Shown piece after piece: positions 55-59,879 of a DNA stretch of 63,224 nucleotides (positions are counted from its first letter, which is position 1; each line of letters begins with the position of its first letter). The notes beneath the pieces were generated by a model. The model ran no database searches. It was given only the letters and a program-made list of their open reading frames with translations, and had not been told where the DNA came from. Source of the stretch: Anaerovibrio sp. (lineage in GTDB: Bacteria > Bacillota > Negativicutes > Selenomonadales > Selenomonadaceae); the NCBI GenBank assembly GCA_052272885.1, contig DAVZJH010000001.1, forward strand, positions 1 to 63,224, written 5' to 3'. The translations under genes and the position numbers were made by a program.

Positions 55-1551
55 ATGGCAAAAACATTGGCAGAATTGGCCGCTTTGGTAGAAGGGGCTG
101 TTATTAATGGCGATAAGGATTTGACCATTGAAGATATTGAGCATGATTCCAGAAAAATAACTCAGGGTGCTCTTTTTGTCTGCATGGAGGGAGTTCATGT
201 AGATGGACATAAATTTATTCCTCAGGCCAAGGAAAAAGGCGGGGTGGCTATTATAACCCAGCGGAAGCTGCAGCCAGAGGAGGCTGAGGGTTTAGCTGTG
301 CTGCAGGTGCCAGATTTGAAAAAGGCCTTGCAGGTTGTGGTGCCATTTTTTCATGATTATCCAGCTCGCAGCATGAGAGTTATTGGTATTACCGGTACTA
401 ACGGCAAAACCTCCATCAGCTATATGGTACGAGCTATGCTGCGCCGTATGGGCTGTCGTGTAGGCTTAATAGGTACTATTCAGATTATGATTGAGGATCA
501 GGTATTGCCTATTCATAATACTACTCCTGATGTGGTGGATTTGCAGCGTACGCTGGCTATGATGCGGGAAGCCAATATGGATTATGTGGTTATGGAGGTT
601 TCCAGTCACGCCCTAGACCAGAATCGGGTAGCCGGGATTGAATTTGACACAGCTGTCTTTACCAATCTTACTCAGGATCATTTGGATTATCACAAAACCT
701 TGGAAAATTACAAAAAGGCCAAGACCATTCTCTTTGATCTGGTTTCTCAGCCGGGTATCAAAAATGGCAAAACCGCTGTGGTGAACATTGATGATGGGGC
801 TGGACAGGATATGCTGGCCCACAGCAAATGCCGCCATATTACCTATGCCATTAACAGGGAAGCAACCCTGCAGGCTGAAAACATACAGGTTTTGGCCAGT
901 GGTGCTCAGTTTGATATAAAGATTGGTGAAGGACATTTGCTATTGAAGCTGCAGATTACTGGTATCTTCAATGTTTATAATGTAATGGCAGCAGTAGGTG
1001 CAGCTTTGGCTGAAGGAGTACCTGGCCCTGTTATCAAGAGCTGTATGGAGGAATTTGCTTCTGTACCTGGTCGTTTTGAGCTGGTACGGGGAGGACAGGA
1101 TTTTGCTGTTATTGTGGACTATGCTCATACTCCAGACGGCTTGGAGAACATTCTGGAAACTGCTAGACAGATAGCCAAAAAGCGAATTATTACTGTATTT
1201 GGCTGTGGTGGAGATAGAGACAATACCAAACGGCCTATTATGGGACGGATTGCAGCCAAAATGTCTGATTATGTGGTGGCTACCTCCGATAATCCTCGTA
1301 GTGAGGATCCTCAGAGGATTCTTGATATGGTTAAGGCTGGGGTAGAGGAAGCCATTGGCAGCAAGCCTCATGAATATATTATTGACCGTCGTCAGGCTGT
1401 TTTTAGAGCCGTGGAGCTGGCTGAAAAGGACGATATTGTGATTATTGCCGGCAAGGGCCATGAGAATTATCAGATTCTTCATGACAAGACCATTCATTTT
1501 GATGATAAGGAAGTAGCCCTAGAGGCTATTCAGTCCCGCAAAGGAGAGTAA
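55..1551 (+). CDS. murE: UDP-MurNAc-L-Ala-D-Glu:meso-DAP ligase
   Basis: Mur ligase motifs GITGTNGKTS, NTTPD, MEVSSH, NLTQDHLDYH, VDYAHTPD; DNPR motif indicates meso-DAP specificity; GGAGG RBS. Confidence 0.97.
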   Translation: MAKTLAELAALVEGAVINGDKDLTIEDIEHDSRKITQGALFVCMEGVHVDGHKFIPQAKEKGGVAIITQRKLQPEEAEGLAVLQVPDLKKALQVVVPFFHDYPARSMRVIGITGTNGKTSISYMVRAMLRRMGCRVGLIGTIQIMIEDQVLPIHNTTPDVVDLQRTLAMMREANMDYVVMEVSSHALDQNRVAGIEFDTAVFTNLTQDHLDYHKTLENYKKAKTILFDLVSQPGIKNGKTAVVNIDDGAGQDMLAHSKCRHITYAINREATLQAENIQVLASGAQFDIKIGEGHLLLKLQITGIFNVYNVMAAVGAALAEGVPGPVIKSCMEEFASVPGRFELVRGGQDFAVIVDYAHTPDGLENILETARQIAKKRIITVFGCGGDRDNTKRPIMGRIAAKMSDYVVATSDNPRSEDPQRILDMVKAGVEEAIGSKPHEYIIDRRQAVFRAVELAEKDDIVIIAGKGHENYQILHDKTIHFDDKEVALEAIQSRKGE

Positions 1552-1559
1552 GATATTTT

Positions 1560-2945
1560 ATGGCAGAATTTACTCTGACAGAGGTGCTGCAGGCCTTACC
1601 TCAGGCTAAGGTTCTCAAGCAACAGGGAGATAAATTTTATAATATTACCACCGATACTAGAAAGATTACTCCTGGAGCTCTGTTTGTGGCTCTAAAGGGA
1701 GAACGATTTAACGGTGAGGATTTTGCAGCCAAGGCTGTAGAGGCAGGAGCAGCTGGAGTGCTGGTTAGCTCTGCCTATCAGGGGCCTGTAGATTTGCCTG
1801 CCACAACTATTCAAGCTGTTAGTGATACTCAGCTGGCTTATCAGCAGCTAGCAGGCTTCTGGCGGCAGAAATTTCAGATTCCAGTGATTGCTATTACAGG
1901 CTCTAACGGCAAAACCACCACTAAGGATATGACAGCTTCTGTGCTGTCAGCCAAGTTCCCGGTATTAAAGACACAGGCTAATTTCAATAACGAAATAGGT
2001 TTGCCTTATACCTTGCTGCAGCTTAACGCTCTGCATCAGGCAGCAGTGGTGGAGATAGGCATGCGTGGCTTGAATCAGATTAGCGCTTTGGCTCCCTTTG
2101 CAGCACCTTCCATTGGGATTGTTACCAATGTAGGTGAAACCCATATTGAGCTTTTGGGCTCTATTGAGAATATTGCCAAGGCCAAGGCTGAGCTGGTAGA
2201 GGCTATTCCCTCTGGTGGTACTGTTATTTTGAATAATGACAATCCATATACAGCTGCCATGAGGGATAAGGCTGCCCAGGGAGTAAAAATAATTACCTTT
2301 GGTATTGATAAGGATGCTGATATTAAGGCTGACAATTTGGTAAGCAATGATAACAGCACCACATTTCAGTGTCGCATAGGGAATGATGGTCCTTTGTGTC
2401 AGATGATTATTCCTATGCTAGGCAAGCACAATGTATCCAATGCTTTGGCGGCAGTGGCAGCAGGCTATTGTCTGGGGTTGGAGCCTCAGGAGATAGCTAG
2501 AGGTCTGTCTGAGCTTCATATGACTGGTATGCGCTTTGAGTGCCGCAAGCTGGGAGATTACAATATTATTAATGATGCCTACAATGCTAGTCCTATGTCT
2601 ATGGAGGCTTCCTTGTCCACCCTCCGCGAGTTGACCGTGACCAAGGGAAAGCGGGCCATTGCTGTGCTGGGAGATATGCTGGAACTGGGCCATGTGGCTG
2701 TGGCTGCCCATCGCAAGGTAGGTCAGCAGGCTGCTGAGGCTGGGGTTTCCTGTGTTATTACCCTGGGAGAAATGGGACGAGAGATTGCAGCTGGAGCCAA
2801 GGAAGCAGGCCTGGAGCAGGTATATGCCTGCGATACTCATCAGCAGGCTGCTGATAGGTTGAAGGCTTTGTTGCAGCCAGGAGATACTGTACTCTTTAAG
2901 GGCTCTCGCGGTATGGCTATGGAGAAGATTATTGACCTTATCTGA
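1560..2945 (+). CDS. murF: UDP-MurNAc-tripeptide:D-Ala-D-Ala ligase
   Basis: ITGSNGKTTTK, NFNNEIGLP, INDAYNASP, GDMLELG, KGSRG motifs; follows murE. Confidence 0.97.
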   Translation: MAEFTLTEVLQALPQAKVLKQQGDKFYNITTDTRKITPGALFVALKGERFNGEDFAAKAVEAGAAGVLVSSAYQGPVDLPATTIQAVSDTQLAYQQLAGFWRQKFQIPVIAITGSNGKTTTKDMTASVLSAKFPVLKTQANFNNEIGLPYTLLQLNALHQAAVVEIGMRGLNQISALAPFAAPSIGIVTNVGETHIELLGSIENIAKAKAELVEAIPSGGTVILNNDNPYTAAMRDKAAQGVKIITFGIDKDADIKADNLVSNDNSTTFQCRIGNDGPLCQMIIPMLGKHNVSNALAAVAAGYCLGLEPQEIARGLSELHMTGMRFECRKLGDYNIINDAYNASPMSMEASLSTLRELTVTKGKRAIAVLGDMLELGHVAVAAHRKVGQQAAEAGVSCVITLGEMGREIAAGAKEAGLEQVYACDTHQQAADRLKALLQPGDTVLFKGSRGMAMEKIIDLI

Positions 2946-3004
2946 TTTCGTCAAAATAGGATAATGACGATTTTGGTTATAATGTAGGGAGGATTATAAA
3001 TTTT

Positions 3005-3958
3005 ATGGATACGTTTACCTATCCCTTGGCAGCGGTAATTCTGGCGGCTGGTTTAGTAACAGCAGCAGCACCTCGATTGATACCGGAGCTGCACAAGCTG
3101 AAATTTGGGCAGAGCATTAGAGAGGAAGGCCCTAAGAGCCATCAGGTCAAAAGTGGTACCCCTACTATGGGTGGTATAATGATTATTTTGTCCATAGCCA
3201 TTACGGTGCTGGTTATTTGCCCTCTTACTTTGGAGCTGGGCTTGGCACTGCTGATTATGCTGGGACATTTTGCGCTGGGCTTTTTGGATGATTATATCAA
3301 GGTAGTAAAGAAGCAGAATCTGGGCTTGAAGGCCAAGCAAAAGCTGTTGGGACAGATTATCATTGCCCTTTTGACAGCTTATTTTGCAGGTTTGCCTACA
3401 GATTTGTGGGTTCCCTTTGCTGGCAATATAGATTTGGGTTATGGTTTTTATGCTTTACTGCTATTTGTTCTGGTGGGAACCAGTAATGCAGTAAATCTTA
3501 CAGATGGATTAGATGGTTTGGCTTCTGGTACTGTTATAGCAGCCTCCTTAGCCTATATGATGATTTGTCTTTGGCTGGGCAAGCTGGAGCTGGCTGTATT
3601 CTGTGCTGCTATAGTAGGTGCTTGTTTGGGCTTTTTGAAATATAATTACCATCCAGCTAAGATATTTATGGGTGACACCGGTTCCTTGGCTTTGGGCGGT
3701 GCTTTGGCAGCCATTGGCATTCTTACACATACCGAGGTGCTGCTGGCCATTATTGGCATTATTTTTGTGTGTGAGGCCATGTCAGTTATTATACAGGTTA
3801 TCTCCTTTAAGACAACTGGCAAAAGGGTTTTCCTTATGAGTCCGATACACCATCACTTTGAGCTGAAGGGATGGTCAGAGACTAGAGTGGTAAGAACCTT
3901 TTGGTTGGTAGGCTTTCTAGGTGGTTTGGCAGGATTAATTCTTTTCAAGATAGGATAA
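3005..3958 (+). CDS. mraY: Phospho-MurNAc-pentapeptide transferase
   Basis: [42 protein letters not shown] motifs; multi-TM. Confidence 0.97.
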
Positions 3959-3977
3959 GTAGAAAGGATCTGGCAAA

Positions 3978-5351
3978 ATGATGGATTTTTCTCATAAGAA
4001 TGTATTGGTTGTAGGTGTAGGTATTAGCGGCAACGCTGTAGCCAAGGTGGCAAAAATGCAGGGAGCAGATAAGGTTGTACTTAGCGATGCCAAGGCTGAG
4101 CAGGATTTGAAATGTGATTTAACCGATGTAAGAGCCGCTGGTGTGGAATTGGTTTTTGGACCTCAGGAAAACACTTTGCTGGACAATGTAGATATGGTTA
4201 TTCTGTCACCAGCTGTACCAGTACGGATTCCTTTGGTGCAGGAAGCATACAAAAGAGAGATTCCTGTTGTTAGCGAGGTACAGGTGGCCTATGAGTTGGC
4301 CAAATCTCCGATTCTTGCTGTTACTGGTACTAATGGCAAAACTACAACTGTTACCCTGCTGGGAGAATTGATGAAAACCAGATATCCTGATGCTGGTGTA
4401 GGTGGCAATATTGGTGTGCCTCTTTGTGAGGAGGCCTTGAAGGCTGGAGAGCACAGCTGCGTGGTGGCAGAGATTTCCAGCTATCAGATGGAGGCTACTA
4501 CCAAATTCCGTCCTCATGTGGCTGTGGTTTTGAATGTTACACCAGATCATGTGGTACGTCATGGCAGTCTGGAGGTTTATCAGCAGATGAAGGAGAAGAT
4601 GTTTGCTCAGCAGACATCAGAGGATTATCTGGTTTTGAACTATGATAATGACAAAACCAGAGATATGGCCAAGAGAGCCAAGGGACAGGTATTTTTCTTC
4701 AGCCGTTTGGAAAGGCTGGAGGAGGGCGCTTTCCTGCAGGATGGCTGGCTGACGATTCAATGGCAGGGACAGACCTGCCGTCTTTGCCGTGCAGACGAGC
4801 TGAAAATCAAGGGCGGCCATAATATAGAAAATGCCTTGGCCGCAGCTTCGGCAGCTTTTCTGGGTGGTGCCAGAATACCTAAGATTATTGAAGTCTTGAA
4901 GGAATTTGCCGGCGTAGAGCATCGCATTGAGCCTGTAGCTGTTATTGGCGGCGTAGCCTATTACAACGACTCCAAGGCTACCAACACTGATTCTGCCATT
5001 AAGGCTTTGGAAAGCTTTGATGGACATATTGTGCTGATTGCTGGCGGCGATGACAAAATGACAGATCTTACTGATTTCATGACCTTGGTCAAGGAACGGG
5101 TAGATGAGCTGATTCTGGTAGGTGATGCCTCAGCTCGCTTCAAGGAAAATGCTTTGAAGCTGGGGTATCCTGCAGAGCATATTCATGAGGTAGGCTACTC
5201 TATGGAGGAGGCTGTTAAGAAGGCTCATGCCATTGCAGGACCACCTCAGACCGTGCTTCTTTCTCCAGCCTGTGCCAGCTTCGATATGTATGATGGCTAT
5301 GAGGCCAGAGGACGGGACTTCAAGGCCTTGGTAAGGGCTCTGGAGAATTAA
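3978..5351 (+). CDS. murD: UDP-MurNAc-L-Ala:D-Glu ligase
   Basis: VTGTNGKTT, GGNIG, EISSYQ, YNDSKATN, LSPACASFD motifs. Confidence 0.97.
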   Translation: MMDFSHKNVLVVGVGISGNAVAKVAKMQGADKVVLSDAKAEQDLKCDLTDVRAAGVELVFGPQENTLLDNVDMVILSPAVPVRIPLVQEAYKREIPVVSEVQVAYELAKSPILAVTGTNGKTTTVTLLGELMKTRYPDAGVGGNIGVPLCEEALKAGEHSCVVAEISSYQMEATTKFRPHVAVVLNVTPDHVVRHGSLEVYQQMKEKMFAQQTSEDYLVLNYDNDKTRDMAKRAKGQVFFFSRLERLEEGAFLQDGWLTIQWQGQTCRLCRADELKIKGGHNIENALAAASAAFLGGARIPKIIEVLKEFAGVEHRIEPVAVIGGVAYYNDSKATNTDSAIKALESFDGHIVLIAGGDDKMTDLTDFMTLVKERVDELILVGDASARFKENALKLGYPAEHIHEVGYSMEEAVKKAHAIAGPPQTVLLSPACASFDMYDGYEARGRDFKALVRALEN

Positions 5352-5377
5352 GGTCACAATAAGCAAGAGGTAGGTTA

Positions 5378-6508
5378 TTGAAAGCTATGAAGATAATAGT
5401 TTCAGGTGGGGGAACTGGAGGACATATTTATCCAGCCCTTACCTTGATTCGTACATTACAACAAAAGGTAGATAAGCTGGAGGTGCTTTATGTAGGCACC
5501 CATGCTGGTCTGGAAGCAGATATTATTCCCAAGGAGGGTATCCCCTTTGCTACAGTAGATTTGCAAGGATTTAAGCGCAGCCTTAGTCCTGAAAACCTGC
5601 TTAGGGCGGCCAGGGCTATCAAGGGCGTGGGCAAGGCTATGGGAATTGTAAGGAAATTCCAGCCAGATGTGGTTGTGGGCACTGGAGGCTATGTATGTGG
5701 CCCGGTGTTAATGGCGGCCAGCCTGCTGGGAATACCATCCTTGATACAGGAGCAGAATGTTATTCCCGGCATTACCAATAAAATCCTTTCTAAATTTGTG
5801 AATAAGATAGCCACTGGCTATCAGGAAGCCAATGGAGCTTTTCCTGCTGACAAGGTGGTATTTACTGGCAATCCTATTCGCCAGGAGGTCATGGCACAGC
5901 GGCAGGAGGCTGATTATGAGGCCTTTGCTCTACGTCCAGACACCACAACTATTTTAGTATCTGGTGGCAGTCGTGGTGCTAGAACCATTAATCGTGCTAT
6001 GGTAGAGGTGTTGAAGCATTATGCAGGCCGTAGGGATGTGCAGATACTTCATGCCACTGGCAAGGGGGAATATGAGGATATTATAAGCAGAATCTCCGGG
6101 GCTGGACTAGATTTACAGCAGGCAGATAATATCAAGGTGAAGCCTTATCTCTACAATATGCCTCAGGCTATGGCCATAGCTGATTTAGCTATTTTCCGAG
6201 CAGGGGCTACAGGATTGGCAGAACTAACGGCCAAGGGAATACCAGCTATTCTGGTTCCCTATCCTTATGCAGCTGAAAATCATCAGGAACACAATGCCAG
6301 GGCTGTGGAAAAGGCTGGTGCTGCCAGAGTTATATTGAACAAGGATTTGACAGCCCAGGGAATTATTCAGGCTATTGATGATCTAATTGGCAAGCCTGAG
6401 AAATTACAGGCAATGGCAGAGGCCAGTGCCAAATTAGGCAGACCGGAGGCAGCAGATACCATTAGCGAGCTGATTATTGAACTGGCTCGTGGCAGGCAGA
6501 ACTGCTAG
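5378..6508 (+). CDS. murG: Lipid II GlcNAc transferase
   Basis: SGGGTGGHIYPA, GTGGYV, EQN, TGNPIR, GGSRGA motifs. Confidence 0.97.
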   Translation: MKAMKIIVSGGGTGGHIYPALTLIRTLQQKVDKLEVLYVGTHAGLEADIIPKEGIPFATVDLQGFKRSLSPENLLRAARAIKGVGKAMGIVRKFQPDVVVGTGGYVCGPVLMAASLLGIPSLIQEQNVIPGITNKILSKFVNKIATGYQEANGAFPADKVVFTGNPIRQEVMAQRQEADYEAFALRPDTTTILVSGGSRGARTINRAMVEVLKHYAGRRDVQILHATGKGEYEDIISRISGAGLDLQQADNIKVKPYLYNMPQAMAIADLAIFRAGATGLAELTAKGIPAILVPYPYAAENHQEHNARAVEKAGAARVILNKDLTAQGIIQAIDDLIGKPEKLQAMAEASAKLGRPEAADTISELIIELARGRQNC

Positions 6509-6555
6509 GAATGTTGACAAGCAAATAGTATATAGAGCAGAAGGGAAGATTTCTT

Positions 6556-7926
6556 TTGTTGACAGGACTGAAAAAAATACATTTTGTAGGTATTGGCGGA
6601 GCAGGAATGAGTGCTTTGGCCAAAATTTTGGCAGAGAAGGGCTACGAGGTTTCTGGCTCCGATGTTAAGGAATCAGCCATGACCCAGGTGTTGGCTAAAC
6701 TGGGGGCTAAGATATATATTGGTCAGAAAGCCGAAAATGTACAGGGGGCAGAGGCTATTGTGGTTTCTACTGCTATTCGGGATACCAATCCAGAGGTAGT
6801 AGAGGCAGCTCGTCTGGGATTGAAAAAGCTGCATCGCTCTGATGTAAACGCTTTCTTGATTAATAATTCCAAGGGCATCGCTGTAGCAGGTGCTCATGGC
6901 AAAACCACAACTACCTCCATGCTGGGGGTAGCCTTGGATTACGAGGGGGTATCTCCTAGCATTATCATTGGTGGCGAGGTAGATTATCTGGGCAGCAATG
7001 CTAGATTGGGTAAAAGTGATTATCTGGTATCTGAGGCTGATGAAAGTGACGGCACTTTCCTGAAATATTATCCTTATGTAGGCATTGTAACCAATGTAGA
7101 GGATGATCATTTGGATCATTATGGAACTATGGAGAATATTATCAAGGCCTTTACCCAGTTCTTGAACCAGGTGCATCCAGAGGGCTTTGGCGTAGTCTGC
7201 TTTGACAATGAGAACATTAGAAATATTGTCAAAAATGTAAAGACTAGATGTATTTCCTATGCCATTGACCATGAGGCGGATTATCAGGCTGTTAATATTC
7301 ATACCAATACAGATGGCACTGTTTTTGAGGTAGTTCGCAAGGGCGAGAATTTGGGACAGGTTTGCTTGCATGTGCCTGGCAGACATAATGTTTTGAATGC
7401 TATGGCTGCTATTGTTACCGGTGTGGAGCTGGGGCAGACTGTACCTGCTATGGCAGAGGGACTTTCTATGTTCCACGGAGCCAAGCGCCGTTTCCAGACT
7501 AAGGGGCGTATTAATGGCATTTGGATAGTAGATGATTATGCACATCATCCAACTGAGATTGCTACCACCTTGAAGGCGGCCCGTCAGACCAAGCCAGGTA
7601 GATTAATCTGTGCTTTCCAGCCTCATCGCTATAGCCGTACCCAGTTGTTACAGAAGGAATATGGCAGCTGCTTCAAGGAGGCAGATATTCTGATTTTGAC
7701 AGATGTTTATTCTGCGGGAGAAGATCCTATTCCTGGGATTGACGGTGAGCTGTTGGTAAAAGAGGTTGTGGAGCAGACTGGCAAGAAGCCTGTTTATATT
7801 CAGGATAAAAAGGAAATTGCTGGCTATTTGCAGTCCATTGCTCAGCCAGGGGATTTGATTATGACCATGGGCGCTGGGGATATTGTGAAATCTGGCGAGG
7901 AATTGGTTGAATTATTAAATAAATAA
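6556..7926 (+). CDS. murC: UDP-MurNAc:L-Ala ligase
   Basis: HFVGIGGAGMS, GAHGKTTT, EADESD, DDYAHHPTE, FQPHRYSRT motifs. Confidence 0.97.
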   Translation: MLTGLKKIHFVGIGGAGMSALAKILAEKGYEVSGSDVKESAMTQVLAKLGAKIYIGQKAENVQGAEAIVVSTAIRDTNPEVVEAARLGLKKLHRSDVNAFLINNSKGIAVAGAHGKTTTTSMLGVALDYEGVSPSIIIGGEVDYLGSNARLGKSDYLVSEADESDGTFLKYYPYVGIVTNVEDDHLDHYGTMENIIKAFTQFLNQVHPEGFGVVCFDNENIRNIVKNVKTRCISYAIDHEADYQAVNIHTNTDGTVFEVVRKGENLGQVCLHVPGRHNVLNAMAAIVTGVELGQTVPAMAEGLSMFHGAKRRFQTKGRINGIWIVDDYAHHPTEIATTLKAARQTKPGRLICAFQPHRYSRTQLLQKEYGSCFKEADILILTDVYSAGEDPIPGIDGELLVKEVVEQTGKKPVYIQDKKEIAGYLQSIAQPGDLIMTMGAGDIVKSGEELVELLNK

Positions 7927-7957
7927 TAAATTAGGGCTATATGGCAGGAGATATTTT

Positions 7958-8893
7958 ATGAAGAAGATAGTAGTTGTAATGGGGGGACCATCTACAGAGG
8001 CAGAGGTTTCTCGCCGCAGCGGCAAGGCTATTTTGAATGCCTTGCTGGAGAAGGGATATCAGGCAGAGGGCTTGGAGCTGGATCCACCTAATTTCCCGCA
8101 ACAGATAAAGGCTAGTGGAGCCGATTTTGTCTTTAATGCGCTTCACGGCAAATACGGCGAGGATGGCATCATTCAGGGCACTTTGGATATGATGGGCATT
8201 CCTTATACCAGCTCTGGAGTTATGGCGGCAGCTGTTACTATGGACAAGGTAGCTACCAAGAGATTTTTTATGGCTGAGGGGATTCCAACCCCTAGAGCTC
8301 ACACCTATTTCCGTTTTGAATACAGCAAACGGAATCTGGCTCAGGAGATTATTGAGGAATTTGGTGTACCAGTGGTAGTCAAGGCTTCCTCTCAGGGCTC
8401 CAGCATTGGCGTGGTAATTGTAGAGCAGCCAGAGAAGCTGGAGGCAGCCTTGGAGGAAGCTTTTAAGTATGACCATGAGATTCTGGTAGAGGAATTTATC
8501 AAAGGTCGGGAGCTGACAGTGGCAGTTTGGGGCAATGAAGAGCATCAGGAAGCTTTGCCTATTATTGAGATTACTACTGTTACTGGTCGCTATGATTATG
8601 AGACTAAATATAAGGCAGGAGCTTCTACCCATATTATTCCCGCACCTTTGCCAGCAGAGGTAAGCAAGGCTGTTGAGGATATAGCAATTCGAGCCTTTGC
8701 AGTGTGTGGCTGTGTAGGCATGGCTAGAGTGGACTTTATGCTGGATGAGCTGAATGAGCCTTATGCCATTGAAATCAATACAGTGCCAGGTATGACAGAA
8801 ACCTCTTTGGTGCCAGATGCAGGACGGGCTGCCGGGATTCAGTTCCCAGATTTGTGTGCCAAAATTTTGGCTATGGCAGGCTATCAGGACTAA
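7958..8893 (+). CDS. ddl: D-Ala-D-Ala ligase
   Basis: MGGPSTE, ALHGKYGEDG, GSSIG, EINTVPG; omega-loop YDYETKY is the Tyr type typical of D-Ala-D-Ala ligases. Confidence 0.95.
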   Translation: MKKIVVVMGGPSTEAEVSRRSGKAILNALLEKGYQAEGLELDPPNFPQQIKASGADFVFNALHGKYGEDGIIQGTLDMMGIPYTSSGVMAAAVTMDKVATKRFFMAEGIPTPRAHTYFRFEYSKRNLAQEIIEEFGVPVVVKASSQGSSIGVVIVEQPEKLEAALEEAFKYDHEILVEEFIKGRELTVAVWGNEEHQEALPIIEITTVTGRYDYETKYKAGASTHIIPAPLPAEVSKAVEDIAIRAFAVCGCVGMARVDFMLDELNEPYAIEINTVPGMTETSLVPDAGRAAGIQFPDLCAKILAMAGYQD

Positions 8894-10764: not shown

Positions 10765-10830
10765 GTTAGAATGTAATAGGTGGAATATAAAATATTGAAA
10801 TAAATGGTGCTGGTATGTGGAGGAATTTTT

Positions 10831-11985
10831 GTGGGAATTGATTTTGCAGAATTTAATGTAGATGATCTGAATACCGTTATTAAGGTAGTAGGTGTTGGCG
10901 GTGGTGGCAATAATGCTGTAAACTGTATGGTATCCTCTGGTATTCAGGGCGTTGAATTTATTGTTATTAATACAGATGCTGAGGTATTGGAAAAGTCCTT
11001 GGCTCCTGTAAGATTGCAGATTGGCCGTAAGGCTACCGAGGGCAAAGGGGCAGGTGCTCGTCCAGAGGTAGGAGCCAAGGCTGCTGAGGAGAATCGTGAT
11101 GAAATCAAGGCTGCTCTGGAGGGAGCAGACATGGTATTTATCGCTGCTGGTATGGGTGGCGGTACTGGTACTGGCGCAGCTCCAGTAGTAGCTGAGTGTG
11201 CTAGAGAAATTGGTGCCCTTACAGTAGCAGTTGTTACCAAGCCATTTGGCTTTGAGGGCCTGATGCGCAGTCGTCGTGCCAAGGAGGGTGTAGCTAAGCT
11301 GTCCCAGCATGTAGACAGTATTATCACTATTCCTAACGAAAAGCTGTTGAACATTATTGACAGAAATACTCCTTTCACCGAGGCATTCCATGCTGTAGAT
11401 GATATTCTGCGTCAGGGTGTTCAGAGTATTGCGGATCTGATTAATGAGTCTGGCTTTATTAATGTAGACTTTGCCGATGTAGAGACTATCATGAGCGATG
11501 CAGGTCCAGCCCTGATGGGTATCGGTGAGGGCACTGGCGATAACGCTTGCCTGGAGGCAGTAAAGGCTGCTGTAGGTTCTCCGCTTTTGGAGGTTTCTGT
11601 ACAGGGTGCAAGAAGCGTTATTATTAACTTCAAGGGTGTGGAATCCCGTCTGAACATGGCTGAAATGACTGAGGCCAGTGAGGCTATTAGAGAGGCTGCT
11701 CATGTAGATGCAGAAATCGTTTGGGGTGTCTCTGTAGATGAAAGCATGGGAGACAAGATTTTGGCTACTGTTGTTGCTACCCGCTTTGATGATAATGCGG
11801 CTCAGCAGCCTAGCCAGTCAACAGATGCTCATCAGTTCTTTGGAACTCAGCCAGCCAATAGCACTCAGCAGGCTGGTAATGGTATGCGCAATTCCACATT
11901 TGGCAGTAATGCAGACAAGGGTATGCCAAATCAGGATTTCTTTACTGTTAACAATATTGATATTCCTGTATGGATGCGTAAGTAA
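10831..11985 (+). CDS. ftsZ: Cell division protein FtsZ
   Basis: IKVVGVGGGGNNAV, GMGGGTGTG, INVDFADV, C-terminal DIPVWMRK; start placed at GTG 10831 after GGAGG (track start 10804). Confidence 0.97.
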   Translation: MGIDFAEFNVDDLNTVIKVVGVGGGGNNAVNCMVSSGIQGVEFIVINTDAEVLEKSLAPVRLQIGRKATEGKGAGARPEVGAKAAEENRDEIKAALEGADMVFIAAGMGGGTGTGAAPVVAECAREIGALTVAVVTKPFGFEGLMRSRRAKEGVAKLSQHVDSIITIPNEKLLNIIDRNTPFTEAFHAVDDILRQGVQSIADLINESGFINVDFADVETIMSDAGPALMGIGEGTGDNACLEAVKAAVGSPLLEVSVQGARSVIINFKGVESRLNMAEMTEASEAIREAAHVDAEIVWGVSVDESMGDKILATVVATRFDDNAAQQPSQSTDAHQFFGTQPANSTQQAGNGMRNSTFGSNADKGMPNQDFFTVNNIDIPVWMRK

Positions 11986-38104: not shown

Positions 38105-38261
38105 GCCTGCACTAGAATAGGATATAGACAGATTGAGAACATTGGCGTTGAAGGGTAGAAGCATTTGTCATGACTCAAAATCTGACAGTATAACGTAAAG
38201 GCATCTGCTTTTTGTGGGCAGGTGCCTTTCTGACAAAAAACATAGGGAGGACAGGGTATTT

Positions 38262-39722
38262 ATGGCCTTTAAGGATTTGCGGGAATATATAGCTGAGCTG
38301 GAAAGCAGAGGACTTTTGAAGCGAATTACCACCGAGGTGGATTGCCAGCTGGAGATTACAGAGATTACGGATAGAGTGTCCAAGATGGAGGGTAACAAGA
38401 ATGTAGCCTTGTTATTTGAGAATGTTAAGGGCTATGATATGCCAGTGCTGATGAATGCCTTTGGCAGTATGGAGCGCATGGCTATTGCCTTTGGAGTGGA
38501 GAAGCTGGACGATGTGGCAGATGAAATGCGGGAAATCCTAAAGCTGCCTTATATTTCCCTGTCTCACAAGACAGATTTACTCTCTATTATCCCTATGGCC
38601 AAAAAAGCCATTAATTTCCCTAAATATGTGAAAAAAGCACCTTGTCAGGAGGTTGTTATAACAGATAATCCATCTCTGGACAAGTTTCCTATTTTGAAAT
38701 GCTGGCCTCAGGATGGAGGTTCCTTTATTACTTTGCCTTTGGTTTTTACCAAAAATCCTAAAACCGGCAAGCGGAATGTAGGTATGTATCGTTTGCAGAA
38801 ATATGATAGCTGCACCACTGGCATGCATTGGCATATTCACAAGAATGGTGCAGATAACTGTCGGGATACCAAGGCTATGGGAGGTCAGAGAATGGAGGTA
38901 GCTGTAGCTATTGGTACAGATCCAGTAGTAACCTACGCTGCTACAGCACCACTGCCAAGGGATATTGACGAAATGGTTTTTGCTGGCTTCCTGCGGCACA
39001 AATCTGTGGAAATGGTAAAATGCAAAACTGTAGATGTGGAGGTACCTGCCGGAGCAGAGATTATTCTGGAGGGTTATGTAGATGTGGATGAACGCCGTTG
39101 GGAGGGGCCGTTTGGTGACCATACCGGCTATTACTCCTTGGCGGATTATTATCCAGTTTTTCATATTACCTGTATTACCCATCGCAAGAATCCAATCTAT
39201 GCTTCTACTATTGTGGGAAAGCCACCTATGGAGGATTGCTTCATAGCCAAGGCTACAGAGCGGTTATTCCTGCCTTTGTTGCAGCAGGCTATTCCAGAGG
39301 TGGTGGATATTAATATGCCTTTGGAGGGTGTATTCCATGATTGCATCTTCGTATCCATCAAGAAAACCTATCCAATGCAGGCTAAAAAGGTTATGACTGC
39401 CCTGTGGGGTATGGGCCAGATGATGTTTATAAAGATGATTATTGTGGTAGATGCCCATGTTAACGTACAGGATGAAAAGGAAGTATGGTGGAGGGTATTT
39501 AACAATATTGATGCCAAGCGGGATTTGATGATGGTAGAGGGGCCTCTGGATGTGCTGGATCACTCCTCTCCAATGGCTAAGTGGGGCACCAAGGTTGGTA
39601 TTGATGCCACCAAGACCTGGCCAGAGGAAGGCCATACCAGAGAATGGCCAGACGAGATTACTATGGACAAATCTATCAAGGATATGGTAGATGCAAAGTG
39701 GGAGGCTTTGGGACTTGACTAA
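38262..39722 (+). CDS. UbiD-family menaquinone biosynthesis decarboxylase (MqnL-like)
   Basis: NVGMYR, EGPFGDHTGYY, GKPPMED, LDHSS; start moved to ATG 38262 after GGGAGG (track 38214). Confidence 0.9.
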   Translation: MAFKDLREYIAELESRGLLKRITTEVDCQLEITEITDRVSKMEGNKNVALLFENVKGYDMPVLMNAFGSMERMAIAFGVEKLDDVADEMREILKLPYISLSHKTDLLSIIPMAKKAINFPKYVKKAPCQEVVITDNPSLDKFPILKCWPQDGGSFITLPLVFTKNPKTGKRNVGMYRLQKYDSCTTGMHWHIHKNGADNCRDTKAMGGQRMEVAVAIGTDPVVTYAATAPLPRDIDEMVFAGFLRHKSVEMVKCKTVDVEVPAGAEIILEGYVDVDERRWEGPFGDHTGYYSLADYYPVFHITCITHRKNPIYASTIVGKPPMEDCFIAKATERLFLPLLQQAIPEVVDINMPLEGVFHDCIFVSIKKTYPMQAKKVMTALWGMGQMMFIKMIIVVDAHVNVQDEKEVWWRVFNNIDAKRDLMMVEGPLDVLDHSSPMAKWGTKVGIDATKTWPEEGHTREWPDEITMDKSIKDMVDAKWEALGLD

Positions 39723-40605
39723 GCATATAGACGGAAAGGCTAGCCTGTGGCAAAGACTGAATGCTCATTTGGACAATATAGCCTTTTATCAGACCATATT
39801 TTCCCTGCCCTTTGCCTATATGGCGGTATTGCTGGCCTCTAAAGGCACAGTGGATTGGTGGATCATGCTGTGGGTAACCATGACCATTGTTTCTGCCCGC
39901 AGTGCAGCTCTGGCCTTGGATAATATGATTGATTTGAAATACGATGTGGATCAGCCAAGATTTCAGCAAAGACCAATGGTGGCAGGTACAGTCAGCCGGC
40001 ATGGTGTTCATGTGTTGATTGGCATTTGCGCAGCTGTGCTGGTATTTTCTGTATTACAGCTGAATCCTATCTGCATCAAGCTGCTGCCTATAGCGGCTCT
40101 GCCCTTTGTGATATATCCCTTTATGAAGCGATATACCTGCTTCTGCCATTATATCTGCGGTGTTGCGGTGGCTATGGCTCCGGCAGGAGGCTGGGTGGCT
40201 GTAACAGGCACTATTGATTATCCTATGGTGGTATTATTCCTGGCCGTTACCTTGTGGATTGGCGGTTTTGATGTAGTATATGGCGCTCAGGATGAGGAGT
40301 TTGACAAGGCTCATGGGCTGCATTCTATGGCCGTAGCTCTGGGGGCAAAAAATGCCCTGTTGCTGGCCAAAATCACCCATGTAATTACCCTGTGTATTTT
40401 CTTTTATCTAGGCCAGTTATTGTCTCTAGGCTATATGTATTATATAGGTGTCGGCATTGCTGGAGGGGTGCTGTATTTTCAGCATCAGATTATTGCCAGA
40501 CAGGGCTTCAAGGCCTTTAATCGGCGTTATTATTTGAGAAATGGTATTGTTTCTGTGGCAATATTCCTGTGTACATTAATGAGTGTGCTATGGGAAGTAA
40601 GATAG
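39715..40605 (+). CDS. UbiA-family prenyltransferase (MqnP-like)
   Basis: TIFSLPFAY, ARSAALALDNMIDLKYD, RP...G, GFDVVYGAQDEEFD; TTG start 39715 inferred (track 39691). Confidence 0.88.
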   Translation: MTKHIDGKASLWQRLNAHLDNIAFYQTIFSLPFAYMAVLLASKGTVDWWIMLWVTMTIVSARSAALALDNMIDLKYDVDQPRFQQRPMVAGTVSRHGVHVLIGICAAVLVFSVLQLNPICIKLLPIAALPFVIYPFMKRYTCFCHYICGVAVAMAPAGGWVAVTGTIDYPMVVLFLAVTLWIGGFDVVYGAQDEEFDKAHGLHSMAVALGAKNALLLAKITHVITLCIFFYLGQLLSLGYMYYIGVGIAGGVLYFQHQIIARQGFKAFNRRYYLRNGIVSVAIFLCTLMSVLWEVR

Positions 40606-57852: not shown

Positions 57853-57888
57853 CGCCGTAGATTTGATAAGAATCTACGGCGCTTTCTT
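57853..57888 (+). terminator. Terminator after the NhaC gene
   Basis: CGCCGTAGATT-7-AATCTACGGCG then CTTTCTT. Confidence 0.75.
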
Positions 57889-57948: not shown

Positions 57949-57977
57949 TTGACTTTTTGCCATAATAGATTTATAGT
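57949..57977 (+). promoter_or_regulatory. Putative sigma70 promoter of the thioesterase operon
   Basis: TTGACT-17-TATAGT. Confidence 0.6.
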
Positions 57978-58026
57978 GTAAAGGTTATTGAAGATATGTA
58001 TTTTTTGAATAGAAGGAGGCTGGAAT

Positions 58027-58434
58027 ATGGTTACAACAGCAATCCACAAGGTTAATTTTTATGATACAGATGCTATGGCTGTAGTGCATCATGCCAACTA
58101 TATCCGTTGGTTTGAAATCGGCAGGGTAGAATTTCTTCGGGCAGCAGGTATTACTCTCACAGAAATGATGGATGATGGCTATGTGTTTCCTATTACAGAG
58201 GTTAGTGCCAAATATATGAATTCTGCTCGTTTTGATGATGAGCTGTTGATAGAAACTACCCCGGAAGCTTTGACTAAGGCTAAGATGGCCTTTACCTATC
58301 GGGTGTTGCGGAAATCTGATAATCTGCTGCTGGTAACAGGGCGTACTCAGAATGTATTTACCAGCATGGAAACTGGACATATTACCAGATTGCCAGCTAA
58401 ATATTATGAAAGATTGCAAAAGGCATTGGGATAA
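58027..58434 (+). CDS. Acyl-CoA thioesterase (YbgC/4HBT family)
   Basis: DTDAMAVVHHANYIRWFEIGR hotdog-fold motif. Confidence 0.92.
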   Translation: MVTTAIHKVNFYDTDAMAVVHHANYIRWFEIGRVEFLRAAGITLTEMMDDGYVFPITEVSAKYMNSARFDDELLIETTPEALTKAKMAFTYRVLRKSDNLLLVTGRTQNVFTSMETGHITRLPAKYYERLQKALG

Positions 58435-58487
58435 AATATGCTGTGTTTTACCAATTTGTATTTATAGATTAATGGGAGGAAATTTTT

Positions 58488-59063
58488 ATGTGTACATTTA
58501 CTTTGGGAAGTTGTCTGCTGTGGCTGGCTGTCATAGTAGTGGTTTTGTGTCTGCTGGTAAAGCTGTATCTCTGCCATGCTGGTACGGAGATTATTATACC
58601 ATTGGTAGATAGCCGTACTGCCTTTAAGGCTGAGGAAGTTACTGATAACAGCATGGTGTTGACCACTGACATTGGCTTTGAAAATCAGGGCAAGCAGTGT
58701 GCTACCATTATGGATGCCTTTGTGCGTCCTCAGCTGCCTTATGAGCAGTATGATGGTTTGGAAACTAAGGGCCATGCTGAGCTGGTAGGTGTACCTCGTG
58801 AGGATGATTATTTCGAGGCTTATATCATTCAGGCCAAGGGCTATAAGGGTGGCTTAGATAAGGCTGCCATTCGTGCTCAGGTTCGTCTTACAGCTAGAAA
58901 GGGCATGAGTCTGAAAGAGGCTGTGGCCCATATGCCAGATTTCAATTTCCAGCTGATTTGGCTGGAGACTGGTCGTATGCCATGCCATTATCGTCAGGTT
59001 CGTATTGAGGTGCCTGCTGTCGAGGTAGCTAATCTGCTTGGCGTAGAGCTGGTAAAGGATTAA
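58488..59063 (+). CDS. Membrane-anchored hypothetical protein
   Basis: GGGAGG RBS, N-terminal TM, beta-rich soluble domain (R.DDYFEAYII). Confidence 0.8.
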   Translation: MCTFTLGSCLLWLAVIVVVLCLLVKLYLCHAGTEIIIPLVDSRTAFKAEEVTDNSMVLTTDIGFENQGKQCATIMDAFVRPQLPYEQYDGLETKGHAELVGVPREDDYFEAYIIQAKGYKGGLDKAAIRAQVRLTARKGMSLKEAVAHMPDFNFQLIWLETGRMPCHYRQVRIEVPAVEVANLLGVELVKD

Positions 59064-59078
59064 TGGGAGGTTGCAGCA

Positions 59079-59741
59079 ATGAGTGAGATAAAGATAGATT
59101 TGATTCCAGTTCCAACCCGTATTCTGACCGATAAGGATGATATTATTGACGAGGTTGAACGTTATACCAAGGGTAAGATTGGCCCGGATGATGTTATTTC
59201 TGTAGCAGAAAGCGTTGTAGCTATTACTCAGGGACGAGCTGTTCGTCCAGAGGATTTGAAGATTACCCGCGTGGCTAGACTGTGCTGTCGTTTTATTCCT
59301 GATTATGGTTCCTTGGCCAGTCCTCATGGCATGCAGTCTCTGATGGATGTAGAGGGCAAATGGCGGGTAGCTGGTGCTTTGGTGCTGGGCTTCCTGGGCA
59401 AGCTGGTTGGCATGAATGGACTTTTCTACAAATGGGGCGGTGAGCAGACTGCTCTGATTGATGATGTTACTGGTACGATGCCTCCATTTGATAAGCATAT
59501 TGTTTATGGACCAAAGAATCCTAATGAGGTTGTGGAGAAGTTGAAGAAGCGTCTGGGCTGTTTTGGCGGTTTGATTGCTGATGTAAACGACCTGAAGCGT
59601 TCCCGTGTAGTAGGTGCTACTGAGGGCTTGGATGGGGAAAGAGCTGCCAGATTGTTGATTGACAATCCATTTGGTAATGCTTCTCAGAAAACTCCTATTG
59701 TTATTATCAAAAACTTCCGTCAGCTGCAGGAGCAGGGCTAA
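59079..59741 (+). CDS. CofE-like (F420-0:gamma-glutamyl ligase family) amide ligase
   Basis: [48 protein letters not shown] match the CofE-fold pattern. Confidence 0.8.
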
Positions 59742-59879
59742 TTTTAGGTTAAATAAAATTTTCATTTTGCATTATTTCTTCAATGCAGGTGTTATAATGG
59801 ACAAGGCCATATTTCTTTGATAGAATATCATTAAAAGGTAATTTGCCTTGACTAGAATGATTAGAAAAGGAAGTTGATT

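Follow-up and report, generated by a model that had tools for sequence, protein, structure and literature searches.

A membrane-anchored protein and its CofE-fold partner: a candidate polyamine ligase for the peptidoglycan of Negativicutes

The locus

The DNA analysed here, referred to below as the window, is a stretch of 63,224 nucleotides from Anaerovibrio sp. (contig DAVZJH010000001.1, positions 1 to 63,224). Towards its right end three genes follow each other on the + strand, encoding an acyl-coenzyme A (CoA) thioesterase (gene 1), a membrane-anchored protein (gene 2) and a predicted carboxylate-amine ligase with the fold of the F420 enzyme CofE (gene 3). Genes 2 and 3 form a single unit, present in nearly all sampled Negativicutes genomes, and are the best candidate so far for the enzyme which attaches polyamines to the cell wall. 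Polyamines bound to the peptidoglycan D-glutamate (D-Glu) of Selenomonas and Veillonella have been known since the 1980s; they are required by the OmpM/Mep45 tether, through which diderm Firmicutes keep their outer membrane attached. No gene for the attachment is named in the open-access papers and preprints searched (PMC10628300, PMC12826042, 10.1101/2021.05.31.446380, PMC5020339), an assignment in a subscription journal being possible.

The features of the locus are listed below.

57853-57881, + strand: terminator-like hairpin, a 12-pair stem followed by a T-run, which ends the upstream Na+/H+ antiporter gene
57949-57977, + strand: sigma-70-type promoter-like site, TTGACT-17-TATAGT, with 10 of 12 consensus matches
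58027-58434, + strand: gene 1, YbgC/FadM-family acyl-CoA thioesterase of hot-dog fold, 135 amino acids (aa) (PF13279, 61.8 bits; TIGR00051)
58488-59063, + strand: gene 2, membrane-anchored partner, 191 aa, one N-terminal transmembrane (TM) helix and a domain of about 160 aa
59079-59741, + strand: gene 3, predicted CofE-fold carboxylate-amine ligase, 220 aa (PF01996, AlphaFold2 model, Foldseek)

The genes are separated by intergenic gaps of 53 and 15 bp, and a GGAGG-type ribosome-binding site precedes each of them. These coordinates agree with a first-pass annotation of the window, in which the three co-oriented genes were placed behind one promoter. The hairpin marks the 5' border of the unit; the upstream neighbour was recognised as an antiporter gene by Pfam, while purB is found downstream, with the next promoter-like site, at 59798, ahead of it. 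A promoter-like site does lie in front of gene 1, favoured by its position only, since such sites are no more frequent in the region than in shuffled sequences (6 against 5.1). No Rfam family was detected between 57700 and 59950.

Contigs from RNA libraries of close relatives (2 libraries, about 96% identical) span genes 1 to 3, one covering 57989-59742 (X3) and the other 58163-59742 (X4). They are compatible with a single transcript of the three genes, contigs of this kind being unable to show start, strand or a single transcript; the start of X3 just past the promoter-like site is a weak hint only. The contigs of the closest relatives resemble the window up to 59742, immediately after the ligase stop codon, and continue with different sequence. 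The gene located downstream of the ligase, here purB, varies among close strains.

A CofE-fold ligase and its membrane-anchored partner

Gene 3 reaches the gathering score of PF01996 (31.9 against 25 bits) over residues 13-66 only, corresponding to profile positions 4-60 of 218, and remains far under the cut-offs of both CofE equivalog models, TIGR01916 (12.6 against 180.65) and NF009809 (18.7 against 274). Its fold was evaluated on an AlphaFold2 model with a predicted local distance difference test (pLDDT) value of 94.1. When compared by Foldseek, the model gave CofE of A. fulgidus as sole significant match (E 1e-8, prob 1.0, TMq 0.62, 17% identity); the CofE structures matched are 2phn, 2g9i and 7uld, with E between 1e-8 and 1e-6, and the next match has E 0.86. 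The CofE fold assigned to gene 3 in the first-pass annotation is therefore well founded. A search of PDB sequences with gene 3 as single query missed CofE, which is found by profile and fold searches.

The family profile aligns the N-terminal region of CofE and its I-T-D-T-N stretch, the only two short stretches alignable by sequence. D168 and N170 of gene 3 align with the D and N of the CofE D-T-N motif, which we take to bind metal, and D168-x-N170-D171 is nearly invariant within the family.

An internal hydrophobic segment had also been pointed out in gene 3, and a segment of this kind does exist: residues 95-117 have a mean hydropathy of 1.16, and a single 19-aa window reaches 1.61. It is not a credible membrane span; in the model, helix H94-109 is a buried, conserved core element (pLDDT about 95). 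The helix was consequently rejected as a membrane anchor, and membrane association of the pair should be taken, with caution, to rest on gene 2.

Gene 2 has its TM helix at residues 6-24 (nt 58503-58559), where hydropathy over 19 aa has its maximum of 2.99, in line with the TM-anchored neighbour first described. Among 35 of 36 family members carrying such a helix, lysine and arginine residues number 3 before it and 77 after it. This positive-inside bias places the gene 2 domain, and the ligase in fused forms, in the cytoplasm at the membrane, so that the predicted topology is N-out/C-in. The conserved motifs of gene 2 are NxGKQ and REDDYFEA. The domain belongs to no known family: comparison with Pfam and NCBIfam gave nothing at E<=1, the family profile had no match among PDB sequences (best E 1.7), and in a protein atlas gene 2 fell only within its own unnamed clusters. 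Prediction of a complex between the soluble domain of gene 2 (residues 30-191) and gene 3 gave a score of 0.00, which speaks neither for nor against binding.

Genes 2 and 3 as one unit

An exhaustive search of representative sequences yielded 678 relatives of gene 3 at E<=0.001, 358 of them at E<=1e-10. Many are about 400 aa long and consist of an N-terminal helix and a domain of about 170 aa, followed by the CofE-like domain. By profile-profile comparison the N-terminal domain of these fusions corresponds to gene 2 (99.1% probability, E 5.9e-19, 162 columns), with which it has the motif R-x-D-x-Y-(F/W)-x-A in common; genes 2 and 3 thus form one unit. Among named genomes, the fused form is found in Cyanobacteria and Sericytochromatia. 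In Negativicutes the two genes are separate and adjacent, 12-18 bp apart in 13 out of 13 loci from Selenomonadaceae, Sporomusaceae and Veillonellaceae. A metagenome protein of 409 aa, P0391, is 75% identical to the window ligase and lies much nearer to Negativicutes than the cyanobacterial fusions do; it could be either a real fusion or a read-through call.

Distribution

Of 301 Negativicutes genomes sampled, 296 have the ligase at E<=1e-10, among them 255 of the 257 of high quality; 90 of 93 genera are represented. One copy per genome is the rule, with few exceptions, and identities are 58-100%. The five genomes lacking a match are 58-97% complete. In a quick maximum-likelihood tree of 83 domains, the 14 Negativicutes rows form one clade, with a Shimodaira-Hasegawa-like approximate likelihood ratio test (SH-aLRT) support of 99 and an inner order following taxonomy; the 17 cyanobacterial rows form a separate clade with support 92.

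Compared at class level, this distribution fits that of polyamine-modified peptidoglycan: polyamines bound to peptidoglycan are described, together with homologues of Mep45/OmpM, as conserved in Negativicutes as a class (PMC5020339). The occurrence of the pair in Negativicutes with polyamine-modified walls, expected from the first-pass annotation, is borne out both by these counts and by the partner gene adjoining the ligase in all 13 loci. Four SLH proteins, of 475-481 aa, are encoded in the genome under study.

Links to peptidoglycan genes

In Negativicutes the typical gene order is thioesterase, glutamate racemase (9 of 13 loci), gene 2 and gene 3; three racemases out of three tested score above the TIGR00067 cut-off. 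The thioesterase gene is found upstream of the pair, on the same strand, in 13 of the 13 loci. Gene 1 itself passes the subfamily cut-off of TIGR00051 (85 against 68.7 bits) and falls under that of the tol-pal-associated YbgC equivalog (84.1 against 141.35). It is co-transcribed with genes 2 and 3, or at least conserved beside them.

Fused domains were surveyed in 74 long representatives of the CofE-like domain family. Amidase_3 occurs in 6 and TPR repeats in 12, while single cases were found of a complete MurF-like ligase, a polysaccharide deacetylase, an Asn-synthase domain, a GNAT domain, an M20 peptidase, a CDP-alcohol phosphatidyltransferase and an adenylate kinase. Relatives fused or adjacent to an Amidase_3 protein are 43-49% identical to the window ligase.

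A metagenome scan, with Amidase_3 fusions as query, provided 80 further loci. Directly upstream of the ligase relative a MurE-subfamily ligase was found in two loci (L146, L147) and the alternative lipid II flippase Amj in two others (L137, L145); MurB lies directly downstream in L166, and a MurJ/Polysacc_synt-type flippase is located downstream in 10 loci. Other neighbours are YkuD, NlpC/P60 and PAP2 proteins. In the Amidase_3 partners the positions which we assume to be the zinc ligands are intact in the alignment. These proteins (L096:5926-6834; fusions P0250, P0255 and others) carry an N-terminal domain of about 120 aa, with no membrane helix.

At its opposite end the window contains a cell-wall cluster (55-8893) formed by murE (meso-diaminopimelate type), murF, mraY, murD, murG, murC and ddl. 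No ftsW/spoVE-type gene is present there between murD and murG; ftsZ is found at 10804-11985.

Links to polyamines and to acyl or acetyl chemistry

At 28 of the 80 metagenome loci the immediate same-strand neighbour of the ligase gene encodes a basic-amino-acid decarboxylase, many of the remaining loci being too short to tell. The OKR_DC_1 type, dependent on pyridoxal phosphate, accounts for 20 of these enzymes: in 13 cases the gene follows downstream at a distance of 13-62 bp, and in 7 it immediately precedes that of the amidase. The other 8 are pyruvoyl-dependent arginine decarboxylases, above the equivalog cut-off in the two tested. Clustering the 28 loci by their ligase domains gives 22 groups at 90% identity and 9 at 70%. 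Within clusters the two kinds of decarboxylase, unrelated to each other, are interleaved and replace one another, a pattern expected of functional coupling. Gene 3 shares 43% identity, over the full length, with a stand-alone relative located beside Amj and an arginine decarboxylase. In 5 Veillonellaceae loci an S-adenosylmethionine (SAM) decarboxylase is found 1-6 kb downstream of the ligase. Two decarboxylases of alanine-racemase fold are encoded in the genome under study.

In Cyanobacteria and Sericytochromatia, 59 of 67 loci, many of which are near kin, have a GNAT acetyltransferase gene (about 370-440 aa) immediately after the fused ligase; next come ruvX, a DUF1292/DUF3727 gene and mltG. 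The GNAT domain of this protein can be recognised over residues ~77-172 only (e.g. L075:5163-6422; loci among L007-L086). One representative fuses GNAT with the CofE-like domain. The arrangement recalls, by analogy, the N-acetylputrescine modification of cyanelle peptidoglycan, where in glaucophytes N-acetylputrescine sits on the D-Glu 1-carboxyl (PMC3334493).

Downstream of the pair, 8 of the 13 Negativicutes loci (L019, L023, L031, L042, L043, L060, L063, L065) carry genes for a hydantoinase-like ATPase and an HDAC-like amidohydrolase. The same two genes are found, divergent and upstream, at four amidase-type loci (L128, L140, L149, L150), so that the hydantoinase/oxoprolinase-like ATPase (about 550 aa) and the HDAC-like protein (about 440 aa) accompany the ligase in two separate clades of the family. 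The best match of the HDAC-like protein is to HDAH/HDAC6, while acetylpolyamine amidohydrolases are matched at E ~1e-29 to 1e-31; judging from these matches it might deacetylate an acetyl-polyamine. Its identification as an acetylpolyamine amidohydrolase was not adopted, the HDAH/HDAC6 match being better, and is kept as a lead.

In four Sporomusaceae loci (L019, L023, L042, L063) an HGD-D gene, 2-hydroxyacyl-CoA-dehydratase-like, and its activase (TIGR00241) are interposed between the ligase and the hydantoinase-like gene; in L019 the HGD-D gene begins one base past the ligase stop codon. Together with the thioesterase, HGD-D and activase are hints of CoA-ester chemistry.

Relation to CofE, FolC2 and other known systems

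CofE acts through an acyl-phosphate intermediate, formed with a nucleoside triphosphate (NTP) and metal, which is attacked by the amine (PMC10861534, PMC8498797), and couples glutamate to F420-0 at the phospholactyl carboxylate (PMC10861534). Gene 3 has in common with the N-terminal domain of CofE/FbiB (PF01996; 2PHN, 2G9I, 7ULD) the fold (prob 1.0, TMq 0.58-0.62), the N-terminal motif region and probably, by analogy, the chemistry, i.e. NTP- and metal-dependent formation of an acyl phosphate followed by amine attack. In contrast, identity is as low as 15-17%, both equivalog models fail, acceptor and amine are predicted to be different, and gene 3 has an obligatory membrane-anchored partner or fusion domain which CofE does not have. 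Judged by sequence comparison, its family is distinct from F420 CofE/FbiB.

The absence of F420 genes, noted at first for the window, extends to the whole genome for cofH and CofC (cofD and cofG were not searched): all matches to the cofH model are under its cut-off of 374.1, and the only CofC match is GlmU. The three best cofH-model matches (320-342 bits) are tandem radical-SAM genes (contig C35:7613-10794), probably Mqn enzymes and not F420 genes. A futalosine-type menaquinone decarboxylase (TIGR03701) and the prenyltransferase MqnP are encoded in the window at 38214-40605, in agreement with an Mqn role of the tandem genes.

FolC is above cut-off in this genome and in 41 of 41 sampled Negativicutes, so that a folate glutamylase of the chlamydial FolC2 kind, proposed initially as an alternative, does not fit. 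The Chlamydia protein, CT611, is reported as a CofE homologue complementing folC (PMC1971073). Like the pair, FolC2 is a CofE-family protein with a job outside F420 synthesis; it occurs, however, in the absence of folC and clusters with folate genes, whereas the genome under study has folC and the family is surrounded by envelope and polyamine genes.

MurT/GatD, which amidates the D-Glu of lipid II in Gram-positive bacteria (PMC3266927), offers a functional parallel: it is a two-protein unit, with the same kind of job as that proposed here, ATP-dependent formation of an amide on the alpha-carboxyl of lipid-linked D-Glu. Its fold, a Mur ligase plus a glutaminase, is unrelated to that of the pair, and its amine is ammonia from glutamine, whereas the pair would use a free diamine. 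By analogy, the pair may work like MurT/GatD while not being a member of it. MurT_C (PF08353) was not found in this genome or in the sampled Negativicutes (0/41), and the Mur-family ligases of this genome are exactly five (MurC, MurD, MurE, MurF and FolC), with none to spare.

Two activities have been described from the biochemical side. A particulate 'lipid intermediate:diamine' activity of Selenomonas ruminantium is reportedly membrane-bound and ATP-dependent, and transfers a diamine onto the D-Glu 1-carboxyl; N-acetylputrescine is reportedly added by envelope membranes of Cyanophora cyanelles, in work of Pfanzagl and Loffelhardt of 1999. Both are membrane-bound and direct a diamine to the D-Glu 1-carboxyl (for Cyanophora, PMC3334493), and the pair has a location, fold and distribution suited to such an enzyme. 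The activities are known without a gene, while the pair is known from genes alone.

Proposed function

These comparisons make it fairly probable, as far as sequence can tell, that the pair is a membrane-tethered polyamine ligase for the peptidoglycan of Negativicutes; the proposal of the first-pass annotation, for which such a ligase was plausible, gains support from distribution, fusions, and peptidoglycan and decarboxylase neighbours. Genes 2 and 3 would be the two halves of an NTP-dependent amide ligase. The gene 3 subunit would activate a stem-peptide carboxylate as acyl phosphate, to be attacked by the amine as in CofE. As amine, we infer a diamine or polyamine produced by a decarboxylase, cadaverine or putrescine in Selenomonadaceae. 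The acceptor would be a stem-peptide carboxyl of a peptidoglycan precursor that has not yet left the cytoplasmic side, most likely the alpha-carboxyl of D-Glu in lipid I or lipid II. Gene 2 would keep the ligase on the inner side of the membrane, where it may contribute to binding of the lipid-linked substrate or the amine. The polyamine-modified wall would then be bound by the SLH domain of OmpM/Mep45, tethering the outer membrane.

Several observations weigh against this proposal. The case for a polyamine ligase is built from fold, distribution and neighbourhood. Within gene 3, sequence similarity to CofE is limited to the first ~70 residues, and the Thr of the D-T-N motif is replaced by Val. 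The decarboxylases of this genome do not adjoin the pair, and the Amidase_3 link in the 80 loci is there by construction, an Amidase_3 fusion having been the query. No signal peptide was found in the ligase-linked Amidase_3 proteins, which by their sequences would be cytoplasmic muramoyl-L-alanine amidases, unusual for the family and with no explanation in the ligase scheme. Gene 1 has no assigned role in the proposed chemistry either; the conserved thioesterase in Negativicutes and the GNAT protein in Cyanobacteria point to acyl-CoA chemistry, which a simple ligase scheme does not need.

The taxonomic range of the family also calls for caution, since it is present where a polyamine wall is not known. 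The fused ligase is patchy in Cyanobacteriota (59 of 201 sampled genomes), and to our knowledge no polyamine-modified wall has been reported for free-living cyanobacteria. There the SLH tether binds pyruvylated polymers (10.1101/2021.05.31.446380). One Amidase_3-linked relative is named Thermanaeromonas by its source; an outer-membrane tether makes no sense in a single-membrane organism, and the function of the family must thus be wider than tethering.

Alternative explanations

The alternative surviving best, rather unlikely in itself, is that the pair modifies another site of the precursor or uses another amine. It might act, for instance, on meso-diaminopimelate at the epsilon-carboxyl, or place an amino acid or amide on D-Glu, and polyamines would be attached in Negativicutes by some other protein. 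The links to peptidoglycan specify neither site nor amine, the family is found in taxa with no known polyamine wall, and a fusion to an Asn-synthase domain exists; Asn-synthase-like enzymes amidate diaminopimelate. Decarboxylated basic amino acids are pointed to, however, by the decarboxylases of two unrelated kinds beside 28 of 80 loci, and no other candidate ligase emerges, MurT_C and a spare Mur ligase both being missing.

That the polyamine, or some other amine, goes onto a membrane lipid or an envelope polymer other than peptidoglycan is unlikely. This would agree with the membrane tethering of the pair, with the conserved acyl-CoA thioesterase of Negativicutes, with PAP2 and DedA/VTT neighbours in one locus (L124) and with the CDP-alcohol phosphatidyltransferase fusion; the last of these, however, branches far from the window protein, in a distant clade, and peptidoglycan partners (Amidase_3, MurF, MurE, MurB, Amj, MurI) are far more frequent.

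A role in soluble polyamine metabolism, with a ligase making gamma-glutamyl- or other acyl-polyamine conjugates and merely parked at the membrane, appears quite improbable. The decarboxylase and SAM-decarboxylase neighbours would be accounted for, as would the HDAC-like amidohydrolase of 8 of the 13 Negativicutes loci, but not the links to Amidase_3, MurF, MurE, MurB and flippases, the glutamate racemase in the cluster, or a dedicated membrane anchor.

Recycling or editing in the manner of Mpl, with a peptide or amino acid ligated to the lactyl carboxylate of MurNAc, is very improbable. The natural acceptor of CofE is also a lactyl carboxylate (PMC10861534), and the fused Amidase_3, an enzyme cutting the bond between MurNAc-lactyl and L-Ala, occurs here in domains with no signal peptide; yet decarboxylase neighbours would go unexplained, MurC is present, and a near-universal single copy in one class better fits a class-specific feature of the wall.

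Finally, a cofactor glutamylase, be it a true F420 CofE or a FolC2-like folylpolyglutamate synthase, is suggested by the database name 'coenzyme F420-0:L-glutamate ligase', by the PF01996 gathering score and by the complementation obtained with CT611, and is close to refuted by both equivalog scores, the results for cofH, CofC and FolC, the membrane partner, and the fact that no folate or F420 gene is adjacent.

Implications

A broader reading, possible but doubtful, is that CofE-fold 'stem-peptide carboxyl:amine ligases' are an old and widespread family decorating peptidoglycan precursors with the aid of interchangeable targeting partners, the cyanobacterial fusion and GNAT making N-acetylputrescine-D-Glu. 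Negativicutes and Cyanobacteria would use the TM domain as targeting partner, while a cytoplasmic Amidase_3 would serve in other Firmicutes-like lineages and TPR repeats elsewhere. If so, about three in ten of the sampled cyanobacterial genomes would carry an overlooked wall modification. The evolutionary origin of CofE is called unclear in a review on F420 (PMC8498797); the cofactor enzyme could be an offshoot of a cell-wall ligase family.

With two candidate genes, conserved in the class and found in Veillonella, where genetics is feasible, the question of polyamine attachment becomes directly testable. Should the pair prove to be the polyamine ligase of Negativicutes, the CofE fold would gain a second function, in the cell wall, and the many genes wrongly named 'coenzyme F420-0:L-glutamate ligase' in organisms lacking F420 would find an explanation. 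It would also provide a handle on the attachment of the outer membrane in Negativicutes, and suggest the existence of unrecognised wall modifications in Cyanobacteria and thermophilic Firmicutes.

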